Positions 47,322-47,974 of a stretch of 64,000 nucleotides of DNA are shown here, one piece after another. Both the position numbers and the translations under genes were made by a program. Position 1 is the first letter of the stretch; each line of letters opens with the position of its first letter. The notes beneath the pieces were generated by a model. The model was not told where the DNA came from. It worked only from the letters and a program-made list of their open reading frames with translations, and ran no database searches. This stretch comes from an uncultured Bacteroidia bacterium (GTDB lineage: Bacteria > Bacteroidota > Bacteroidia > J057 > JADKCL01): positions 18,527 through 82,526 of the forward strand of contig CAYGRE010000005.1 of the NCBI GenBank assembly GCA_964352215.1, read 5' to 3'.

Positions 47322-47324
47322 TTA

Positions 47325-47472
47325 GAGGTCCGAGCTCTCGCGCGGAAGGTCCGAGCTCTCGCGCGGAAGGTCCGGGCTCTCTCGCGGAAGGTCCGAGCTC
47401 TCGCACGGAAGGTCCGAGCTTACTACCTGGGAGGTCTGAGCTTACTACCCCGGAGTTCTGACCTCTTTCGCG
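47325..47472 (+). repeat. seven tandem 20-23-bp direct repeats (iteron-like), left array
   Basis: GAGGTCCGAGCTCTCGCGCG / GAAGGTCCGAGCTCTCGCGCG / GAAGGTCCGGGCTCTCTCGCG / GAAGGTCCGAGCTCTCGCACG / GAAGGTCCGAGCTTACTACCTGG / GAGGTCTGAGCTTACTACCCCG / GAGTTCTGACCTCTTTCGCG. Begins 4 bp after the toxin stop. Confidence 0.9.
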
Positions 47473-47825
47473 GTAGCCTTTTGCTATGTGACGTGTAGCT
47501 AAAGGCTACGGAGCGTGTGTTCTTAACTGAGTGGAAAAGTACACTTTTAGTGGTCTTTATTCGGCATTTTGCTCCATTGGGCTACCCATTAGGCTATTTT
47601 CCTTAAAGCCCGGCACGTCTACCAAAAGGGTGCATCCCAATCAGCCTTTTTCCTGGCACCACGCTGACAAAATGCCACCAATTCGACCCAATTTCCCCAA
47701 AACCTTCCTCCTACTCTTCGTGGTGCAGTTGGGTCGACTGCCAAAAGCGGCCTTTAAGGCCACTCAGGACTTGTTATAGCAATATCCAGCGCAACCGCCA
47801 CCAAGGTTCTTTGCTCGAATATAGT

Positions 47826-47974
47826 GAGTTCGGAGCTTACTGGTAGTAAGCTCAGACCTCCCTCACGGAAGGTCTGGACTCGCCACTGGGAGCTCAGACC
47901 TCCCTTCGAGGAGGTAAAACCTCTTTGCCAGGAGGTCCGAACTCGCCTTCATGAGTTCCGAACTTCATTTCCAG
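47826..47974. repeat. right array of the same 21-22-bp repeat family (direct and inverted units)
   Basis: GAGTTCGGAGCTTACTGG + inverted TAGTAAGCTCAGACCTCC (9-bp hairpin 47833-47841 / 47845-47853); GAAGGTCTGGACTCGCCACTGG; inverted GAGCTCAGACCTCCCTTCGAG; GAGGTAAAACCTCTTTGCCAG; GAGGTCCGAACTCGCCTTCAT; GAGTTCCGAACTTCATTTCCAG. Confidence 0.8.

Follow-up and report, generated by a model that had tools for sequence, protein, structure and literature searches.

A phased array of dyad-symmetric repeats, possibly an extragenic palindromic minisatellite cluster, beside a ParE toxin gene in an uncultured Bacteroidota lineage

Introduction

Repetitive extragenic palindromic (REP) sequences form clusters, and units "reiterated in tandem" are on record for them (PMC3733652). 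[quoted passage not shown] Here we describe a locus at 46.3-48.0 kb of a 64 kb stretch of contig CAYGRE010000005.1 (the whole stretch is called the window below), in which two sets of 21-22 bp repeats, arrays A and B, accompany a toxin-antitoxin cassette with a ParE-family toxin. We tentatively read it, with slightly less than even confidence, as a cluster of extragenic palindromic minisatellites of the kind of REPs and bacterial interspersed mosaic elements (BIMEs) or of BrickBuilt, which is also a phased predicted protein-binding array. The features of REPs and BIMEs that are present are short imperfect palindromes that are extragenic and lie 3′ of genes (array A after a gene for a 265 aa protein, array B after parE). 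Those of BrickBuilt are a spacer-less tandem repeat of the ~23 nt class and a copy number that varies between loci, as seen for the array A unit. The locus is very probably neither a replication origin nor a partition site. Array A (46305-46750) and a perfect 21 bp inverted repeat (47429-47449/47843-47863) were absent from a preliminary description of this DNA, which dealt with array B.

Array B and its conserved dyad

Array B consists of two halves, B-left and B-right, as follows.

47323 to 47472, plus strand: array B-left, seven head-to-tail units, four of 21 bp that are nearly identical, then units of 22, 22 and 21 bp
47323, 344, 365, 386, 407, 429, 451: starts of the B-left units, read in register
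47331, 352, 373, 394, 415, 437, 459: dyad centers of B-left
47821 to 47975, no strand assigned: array B-right, seven diverged units in mixed orientation
47832, 854, 875, 896, 917, 938, 959: dyad centers of B-right, spaced 22, 21, 21, 21, 21 and 21 bp

Tandem Repeats Finder, a weight matrix and autocorrelation confirm the layout given in the preliminary description, two arrays of seven 21-22 bp units around a core of ~350 bp directly after the ParE gene. B-left begins 2 nt past the parE stop codon (47319-47321). Tandem Repeats Finder reports it in two calls, the first at 47326-47420 (period 21, 4.5 copies, 93% matches) and the second at 47410-47461 (period 22, 2.4 copies). Seven head-to-tail units of GAAGGTCCGAGCTCTCGCGCG had been described; there are indeed seven units, but only the first four fit that consensus. 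Unit u4 repeats u2 exactly, and u3 agrees at 19/21 positions. Units 5 and 6, the 22-mers, end in TTACTACC, and unit 7 is a more diverged 21-mer. The mixture of direct and inverted units described for the second array was borne out at 47821-47975, where units r1/r2 and r3/r4 form inverted doublets. There are no spacers between the 21-22 bp repeats of array B.

A 13 bp dyad, RAGNTCNGANCTY, is common to all 14 units. It has 11 exact matches in the 64 kb, all within array B, against 0.27 expected, and none of 100 shuffles reached 11. The shorter dyad AGNTCNGANCT also has 11 matches (0.85 expected). With a symmetrized weight matrix, 14 sites score 11 bits or more, at a spacing of 21-22 bp, and none of them is in the core. 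Autocorrelation at lag 21 is 0.651 in B-left and 0.507 in B-right; the shuffle maxima are ~0.34-0.37 and neither value was reached by any of 300 shuffles.

B-left is young, so its conservation is uninformative. B-right is old. Its whole units are only 45-75% alike, yet their spacing is kept at 21-22 bp. Within B-right, pairs of units agree in 150/168 comparisons (89%) at the eight dyad positions AG.TC.GA.CT. At the three symmetric N positions they agree in 15/63 (24%, as at random), and in the ten columns beyond the 13-mer in 79/210 (38%). This bears on whether array B is simply a neutral minisatellite (a variable number tandem repeat), i.e., the product of replication slippage at a self-complementary GC-rich sequence that decays by drift and has no function. 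The near-identity of units u1-u4 is what slippage would leave behind, a lineage-specific expansion of a 17 bp array in the window is demonstrated (see below), and the window holds further small tandem arrays. Decay by drift, however, should strike all columns equally, whereas B-right is 89% conserved at eight positions and 24-38% elsewhere with its phase held to within 1 bp. Neutral decay would not be expected to give rise to the B-right pattern. Both unit orientations are present, which slippage alone does not produce, and the copy number is the same between assemblies. We regard a purely neutral origin as quite unlikely.

Instead, we infer from the pattern of the sequence that B-right was probably selected for a dimeric protein that binds double-stranded DNA, with all sites on one helix face. 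The dyad has a single central base and does not form a hairpin alone, thus it is predicted to be bound as double-stranded DNA by a dimeric protein, with one site every two helical turns. One proposal of the preliminary description, a binding array for a DNA-binding protein, gains support from this dyad-symmetric, position-specific conservation.

The array region is identical in sequence and orientation across three independent metagenome assemblies, with no difference in copy number. One of the three metagenome contigs over the locus (L003) ends within the first B-left units, at window position ~47355, and the repeat thus breaks short-read assemblies.

Array A and its dispersed units

Array A and its two dispersed copies lie at the following positions.

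46305 to 46750, no strand assigned: array A, ~20 units of 22 bp, or ~10 if counted as 44 bp units, strongly diverged, GC 0.60-0.75
36754 to 36782, plus strand: dispersed copy of ~1.5 units, between convergent gene ends (DUF4394 gene end at 36521, 197 aa gene end at 36933)
32699 to 32719, plus strand: single dispersed copy, GAGGGCACCCGGACCCTCGG, ~200 bp 3′ of the Fic gene

Array A fills much of the 685 bp spacer upstream of the toxin-antitoxin genes, 3′ of the gene for the 265 aa protein. The motif CCCTC recurs at 46312, 334, 379, 401, 445, 489, 533, 577, 600, 642, 664 and 708, at intervals that are essentially multiples of 22 bp. The autocorrelation at lag 22 is 0.441, a value that 0/300 shuffles reach, and that at lag 44 is 0.44; the shuffle maximum is 0.332 ± 0.010. 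Most units contain a hairpin-capable palindrome, RCCCTC-N2-4-GAGGGY. One unit has another sequence and retains the dyad symmetry (CTGCCCA-CT-TGGGCAG). Array A was not reported by Tandem Repeats Finder; strongly diverged phased arrays of this kind elude standard tandem repeat finders.

The first unit of array A, CCCTCGGCWGAGGGCACCCGGA, is found at three loci in the 64 kb (32699, 36754 and 46312), each 3′ of a gene, and the unit is present there in 1, 1.5 and ~20 copies. The array A family is thus an extragenic repeat that is dispersed and varies in copy number from locus to locus. The preliminary description had named just such a repeat, dispersed and with no link to replication or partition, as the finding that would speak against an origin or centromere, and for the array A family, with its unit at three gene 3′ ends, this is what we found.

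The half-sites of the two arrays are alike, GAGGG/CCCTC in A and GAGGT/ACCTC in B. The reverse complement of the array A unit, rotated, matches u3 of B-left at 14/22 positions, a count made by eye which by a rough estimate is at the edge of significance. Both arrays stand out as GC islands (0.55-0.75) from their flanks (0.33-0.45).

A possible mechanism

If the locus is an extragenic palindromic repeat cluster, 21-22 bp GC-rich dyad modules located just 3′ of genes would have multiplied in tandem through slipped-strand mispairing or unequal recombination, with some of them inverted. Slippage is recent in B-left, and tandem expansion is demonstrated in the lineage by the 17 bp array. The units of array B may have been kept as recognition sites for a dimeric double-stranded DNA-binding protein encoded outside the window, since only the eight dyad positions AG.TC.GA.CT and the two-turn spacing are conserved. 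Loading of such a protein would be cooperative and on a single helix face. Most likely, the toxin-antitoxin operon would be set off from the lipoprotein gene downstream by a nucleoprotein or structural block, with the role of an insulator, terminator or silencer. If the protein that binds is a transposase or recombinase, the same recognition may also drive the spread of the repeats.

Several observations weigh against this account. The array B unit occurs nowhere else in the 64 kb, and the dispersal that defines REPs and MITEs is seen for array A only. We found no REP-associated tyrosine transposase (RAYT), other transposase or candidate binding protein in the window; the search for mobility genes covered every open reading frame (ORF) of the variable island described below and every larger ORF of the window in Pfam, and subsets in NCBIfam, PHROGs and PADLOC. 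The B dyad, with its 1 nt center, forms no hairpin alone, unlike classic REPs. In contrast to BrickBuilt, we found neither a leader or tail that bears terminal inverted repeats nor a target-site duplication, and two arrays around a unique core are unusual for a REP cluster or for BrickBuilt. The matches in other genomes discussed below were chosen by the search pattern, and as one motif per unit suffices in tandem arrays, many may be due to chance. A six-frame heptad peptide query made from the unit, aimed at mis-called ORFs over sister arrays, matched no predicted proteins elsewhere.

If the array is bound by a dedicated protein, it would represent a new recognition motif in an uncultured Bacteroidota lineage and maybe a new form of packaging or insulation of the edge of an acquired island beside a toxin-antitoxin module. 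If it is only a REP- or BrickBuilt-like cluster, its value is practical. The arrays break assemblies, and they mimic iterons and centromeres and can thereby mislead plasmid or origin predictors.

The core and the inverted repeats

The DNA between the two halves of array B, and the perfect inverted repeat that encloses it, comprise the following features.

47473 to 47820, no strand assigned: unique core, ~350 bp, no units, no periodicity, GC 0.40-0.57, non-coding
47473 to 47509, plus strand: GTAG-headed hairpin at the left core edge, GTAGCCTTT (47473-81), 19 nt, AAAGGCTAC (47501-09)
47429 to 47449, plus strand: left arm of the perfect 21 bp inverted repeat, GGGAGGTCTGAGCTTACTACC, equal to unit u6
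47843 to 47863, minus strand: right arm of the perfect 21 bp inverted repeat, GGTAGTAAGCTCAGACCTCCC, equal to unit r2

The core has no 21-22 bp periodicity (P = 0.12). The hairpin at 47473-47509 that the preliminary description listed is present and is the sole 9 bp inverted repeat of the core. Its stem can be extended by GCTA(T)/(G)TAGC and it is a stem-loop in every predicted fold. The GTAG head is found only on this separate hairpin and not on the units. The listed GGCCTTTAAGGCC is also in place, at 47749-61. The third listed element, AAAAGTACACTTTT (47535-48), was wrongly called a perfect 14 bp palindrome; it has 6 bp arms, AAAAGT/ACTTTT, around AC. The description of the core as palindrome-rich holds only marginally (P = 0.03-0.08 against dinucleotide shuffles).

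We rejected the core as a gene. An 82 aa ORF (47531-47779) has no Pfam match, and there is one marginal match (E = 4e-4) among 1.84 billion proteins. A structured RNA is not supported either, with fold z-scores of -2.6 and -1.5. Rfam gave only sub-threshold noise over 45-50 kb at E-values up to 10, and no tRNA or tmRNA is present in the window. An RNA of a type III toxin-antitoxin system (ToxI-like, with 34-45 nt repeats before a ToxN/AbiQ-type toxin) was also rejected: the units here are 21-22 nt, no ORF follows array B, and the genes after array A encode a protein antitoxin and ParE. A sigma-54 promoter, an integron attC site and a CRISPR were dropped on sequence, as their defining features are absent.

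The arms of the 21 bp inverted repeat enclose 393 bp and are paired as a perfect 21 bp stem in the predicted fold. These arms could be the terminal pair of a miniature non-autonomous transposon, in which the other units would be subterminal transposase-binding sites. Multiple transposase-binding sites are found at the ends of Tn7, Mu and Tn5053 and in inverted repeat/direct repeat (IR/DR) elements. A perfect inverted repeat around 393 bp of unique DNA, with several phased copies of one site on both sides, is consistent with this. BrickBuilt is a precedent for IS5-mobilized MITEs with internal minisatellites in the Bacteroidota (PMC4596501), and in Bacteroides sp. 224 an 88 bp module of four AGGTCnGACCT dyads lies at 13 fetched loci in both orientations. 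However, we saw no target-site duplication beside either arm or at the outer edges of the arrays. The units of B-right are mixed rather than uniformly inverted. There is no transposase in the window, none is enriched beside 78 array-flanking ORFs elsewhere, and there is no second copy in the 64 kb. The array sites are dyad-symmetric, whereas the end-sites of transposases are normally asymmetric. Thus, we consider a transposon unlikely. The start of the unit, GGAAGGTCCGAG, may resemble the terminal repeat of IS5, GGAAGGTGCGAA.

The same inverted repeat could mark an inverton, in which a recombinase encoded elsewhere flips the 393 bp segment and thereby switches the lipoprotein gene at 48241-50013 on or off. 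Invertons are common in the Bacteroidota, to which type IX secretion sorting domains (PF18962) in window proteins point, and a segment of 393 bp is of typical inverton size (100-800 bp). The next gene downstream encodes a lipoprotein with a lipobox, a typical target of phase variation. On the other hand, the segment has a single orientation in all three assemblies. It contains no sigma-70-like promoter and no Bacteroidota -7 motif (TAnnTTTG), and its end is 380 bp upstream of the lipoprotein gene. No recombinase gene was found in the 64 kb, and an inverton would leave the 14 phased sites and array A unexplained. We think it highly improbable that the segment is an inverton.

The toxin-antitoxin cassette and the variable island

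The genes next to the arrays, and the island that holds them, are located as follows.

46758 to 47321, plus strand: toxin-antitoxin cassette, made up of antitoxin, toxin and a 34 bp conserved upstream stretch
46792 to 46998, plus strand: antitoxin, PF09720 (Unstab_antitox)
46995 to 47321, plus strand: ParE-family toxin, PF05016
32640 to 48378: variable island, 15.7 kb, versus 3.1 kb in the relative L004

Homology of the cassette to three other contigs (L073, L074 and L075) covers exactly 46758-47320, and arrays A and B-left bound the cassette within a few bases on either side. Because the homology is limited to this interval, arrays A and B abut the cassette on both sides. The cassettes on these contigs, with ParE proteins of 75-77% identity, have no arrays, and we therefore rejected the idea that the toxin-antitoxin genes and the array are one mobile cassette.

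The relative L004 is syntenic with the window at 25455-32640 and 48378-50011. At the position of the island, L004 has instead its 3.1 kb with a second UCP028175 gene, a DUF4919 gene and a 131 aa ORF. The GC of the island is 0.38-0.48 over most of its length, versus mostly 0.50-0.56 in its flanks. The island codes for a Fic/SoFic-like protein, a DUF4394 protein, a metzincin, the toxin-antitoxin pair and orphan proteins of 197, 496, 217, 941 and 265 aa; no relatives of the 941 aa and 265 aa proteins were found in the PDB. The array locus sits at the right edge of this variable island, which has no visible mobility genes. No match to Rep, Par, integrase, transposase, relaxase or RAYT was found among the window ORFs tested, and for all of them we can confirm the observation in the preliminary description that genes for Rep, Par and integrase are not to be seen. 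Apart from the array A unit, we found no att-type direct repeats at the two island borders.

The preliminary description had proposed a relic or satellite origin, or a partition centromere, of an integrated plasmid-like element, with the ParDE-like module as stabilization cargo. The 21-22 bp phasing and the 7 + 7 copies fit iteron and centromere arrays, and an arrangement of two arrays around a core is reminiscent of plasmid R1 parC and of the pBtoxis tubC blocks. A toxin-antitoxin module adjoins the locus, which is part of a 15.7 kb low-GC variable island. It is only the repeat geometry that fits, however; the other defining features that were tested are missing, and the proposal is thus unsupported. 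Among the ORFs tested, neither the island nor the window has a gene for Rep, ParA/B, ParM/R, TubZ/R, integrase or relaxase, or a phage gene. No AT-rich unwinding element is present (the lowest GC of any 60 bp in 47320-48000 is 0.40). No DnaA box with at most one mismatch occurs between 42269 and 51957, and the nearest DnaA box-like sequences are at 42261 and 51957. A BLASTN search gave no match among 72,556 plasmids or 50,697 phages. The closest homologs of the toxin-antitoxin genes have no arrays, and array A, which is of similar build, is part of an extragenic repeat family that is dispersed. Of the specific alternatives, a relic origin or centromere is the least supported and we judge it highly improbable.

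The downstream gene at 48241-50013 encodes the lipoprotein with its lipobox. Between it and a lipase gene, two adjacent short ORFs lie at 50105-50382. One, of 51 aa, matches positions 1-38 of the 56-position DUF433 profile, and the other, of 41 aa, matches positions 1-32 of the 110-position DUF5615 profile. Together they resemble a truncated remnant of a second toxin-antitoxin-like pair. PF18962 proteins are present in the window, as mentioned above.

Other tandem repeats occur in the window. A 17 bp array of TTGGCGATCAGTTCTTG at 32489-32580 (5.4 copies, 94% matches) is directly upstream of the minus-strand gene at 30879-32477. In L004 the same 17-mer is single-copy at the same place, so a lineage-specific tandem expansion of a short intergenic sequence has occurred. 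At 34476-34571, just upstream of the Fic start (34460, minus strand), are four AT-rich units of ~24 bp that each start with TTATTRTTWA and have an autocorrelation lag of 48. One ORF of at least 7,910 codons covers 1-23730 on the minus strand and runs past the left edge of the window. Its N-terminus is signal peptide-like (MHTNDSNFTTRKGFPFTFLAFLFLALLAPTFGFSQ) and it has internal repeats of 225/450 bp and 234 bp (5495-6505 and 12179-12760). It probably encodes a giant secreted adhesin-like protein.

Phased dyads in other genomes

We scanned 185,579 genomes for sets of three phased dyads and obtained 68 loci; in metagenomes, a more specific two-unit pattern gave six. Three viral scans gave zero or coincidental coding matches. 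We do not take the loci from these scans as homologs or as evidence of homology, because one motif per tandem unit already yields three matches and a naive chance estimate does not apply. The metagenome matches include a high-GC, probably eukaryotic array, and the similarity of the scan loci to the window is confined to the imposed core. By our own tally, ~13 of ~33 matched genomes are Bacteroidota. Several of the Bacteroidota matches are true site arrays with variable spacers and not simple tandem copies. Intergenic phased arrays of AGGTCnGA(C/G)CT, selected by pattern, are found in Sporocytophaga, Flavobacteriaceae (L064) and several Bacteroides and Prevotella genomes. In a Pfam census of the 78 ORFs that flank arrays, transposase, Rep and Par were not enriched, and HU-HIG alone came up (5/78). 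Apart from this, the arrays are flanked by unrelated housekeeping genes, a setting that would be expected of intergenic repeats that are dispersed.

Some of the individual scan loci are listed here.

L006, L008, L015, L019, L020, L032, L038, L046, L059, L063, L067, L069, L072: loci of the Bacteroides sp. 224 module
L028 1340-1420, L035 7090-7165, L036 7745-7820: AAGGTCWGACCTT triplets in three Bacteroides metagenome-assembled genomes (MAGs)
L031 4330-4600: array of Sporocytophaga sp., ~13 units of 21 bp with core GAGGTCTGAGCTC
L053 7450-7788, L029 6700-6810: arrays of a deltaproteobacterial MAG, 22 bp units AGGTCCGAGCT

The Bacteroides sp. 224 module is intergenic and ~88 bp long, with four perfect AGGTCnGACCT palindromes at a spacing of 22 bp, and occurs in both orientations among the 13 fetched loci. 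It is sometimes joined to other shared modules, and no transposase was seen adjacent to it. The AAGGTCWGACCTT triplets lie ~45 bp upstream of a gene for a 155 aa HU-HIG (PF18291) protein. As this arrangement is conserved between species, the triplets are candidate operator arrays for the HU-HIG family. A Flavobacteriaceae MAG has GAGGTCSGACCTC three times. In the Sporocytophaga array, the core GAGGTCTGAGCTC is the reverse complement of unit r4 of the window, and three perfect units are followed by decayed ones. This array is in a 900 bp intergenic region that extends from a short-chain dehydrogenase gene to ispG (GcpE), upstream of ispG. The array at L053 is bracketed by an inverted repeat, CAAGATGGGTTTGGTTT/AAACCAAACCCATCTTG, with a second copy of the bracket nearby, and its array-core-array layout is reminiscent of the window.

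There is a further alternative. The 14 RAGNTCNGANCTY dyads, perhaps with array A, could be the loading platform of an unrecognized sequence-specific DNA-binding system that is widespread in the Bacteroidota, with the AAGGTCWGACCTT triplets and the GAGGTCSGA(C/G)CTC arrays of Flavobacteriaceae and Sporocytophaga as relatives, and that silences, insulates or segregates acquired islands. We consider this very unlikely.

Comparison with known systems

The iteron origins of theta plasmids (R6K gamma, P1, F, RK2) and the lambda-type origins are similar to the locus in their 17-22 bp repeats, their phasing of ~22 bp and their sets of 4-9. The iterons bound by the lambda O protein are dyad-symmetric. 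Unlike these origins, the locus lacks an initiator gene, an AT-rich unwinding region and sites for DnaA or IHF. Its arrays are GC-rich and lie outside any plasmid or phage context, and its dyad-symmetric units have mixed orientation in B-right. The partition centromeres parC of R1, sopC of F and tubC of pBtoxis likewise consist of multiple phased sites. In parC and tubC, two repeat blocks are separated by a core, and the units of sopC each hold a palindrome. Centromeres adjoin a parA/B, parM/R or tubZ/R operon, whereas none is present among the tested ORFs in the 64 kb, and the core here is 350 bp as opposed to ~40-55 bp.

The HU-HIG (PF18291) triplets of Bacteroides resemble array B in their 13 bp dyad with the skeleton AGGTC-N-GACCT, their exact 22 bp spacing and their occurrence in Bacteroidota, a resemblance that was selected by the search pattern. 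They differ from it in that there are only three sites, which different species share (L028, L035 and L036) and which lie ~45 bp upstream of one particular gene; there is no HU-HIG gene in the window.

Among the units of REPs and BIMEs, lengths are 35-40 bp with defined linkers, whereas the units here are 21-22 bp with strict two-turn phasing. The B dyad, with a center of 1 nt, cannot fold as a hairpin. The window ORFs have no RAYT (Y1_Tnp) match, and the units have no GTAG or CGTC tag. The likeness is in short GC-rich imperfect palindromes that are extragenic and typically just 3′ of genes, and that occur as singletons, inverted dimers and tandem clusters. The array A unit occurs here in 1, 1.5 and ~20 copies, and B-right has inverted doublets, as in REPINs (REP doublets that form hairpins).

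Between a leader and a tail with IS5-type terminal inverted repeats, BrickBuilt has one internal array. The locus here has two arrays placed around a unique core, with no leader or tail shared with other loci and no target-site duplication. The two are alike in several respects: both are from Bacteroidota, and both have spacer-less repeats of ~23 nt with dyad symmetry, in 1 to ~23 copies per locus and always intergenic, with long predicted stem-loops, no Rfam match and a limited host range.

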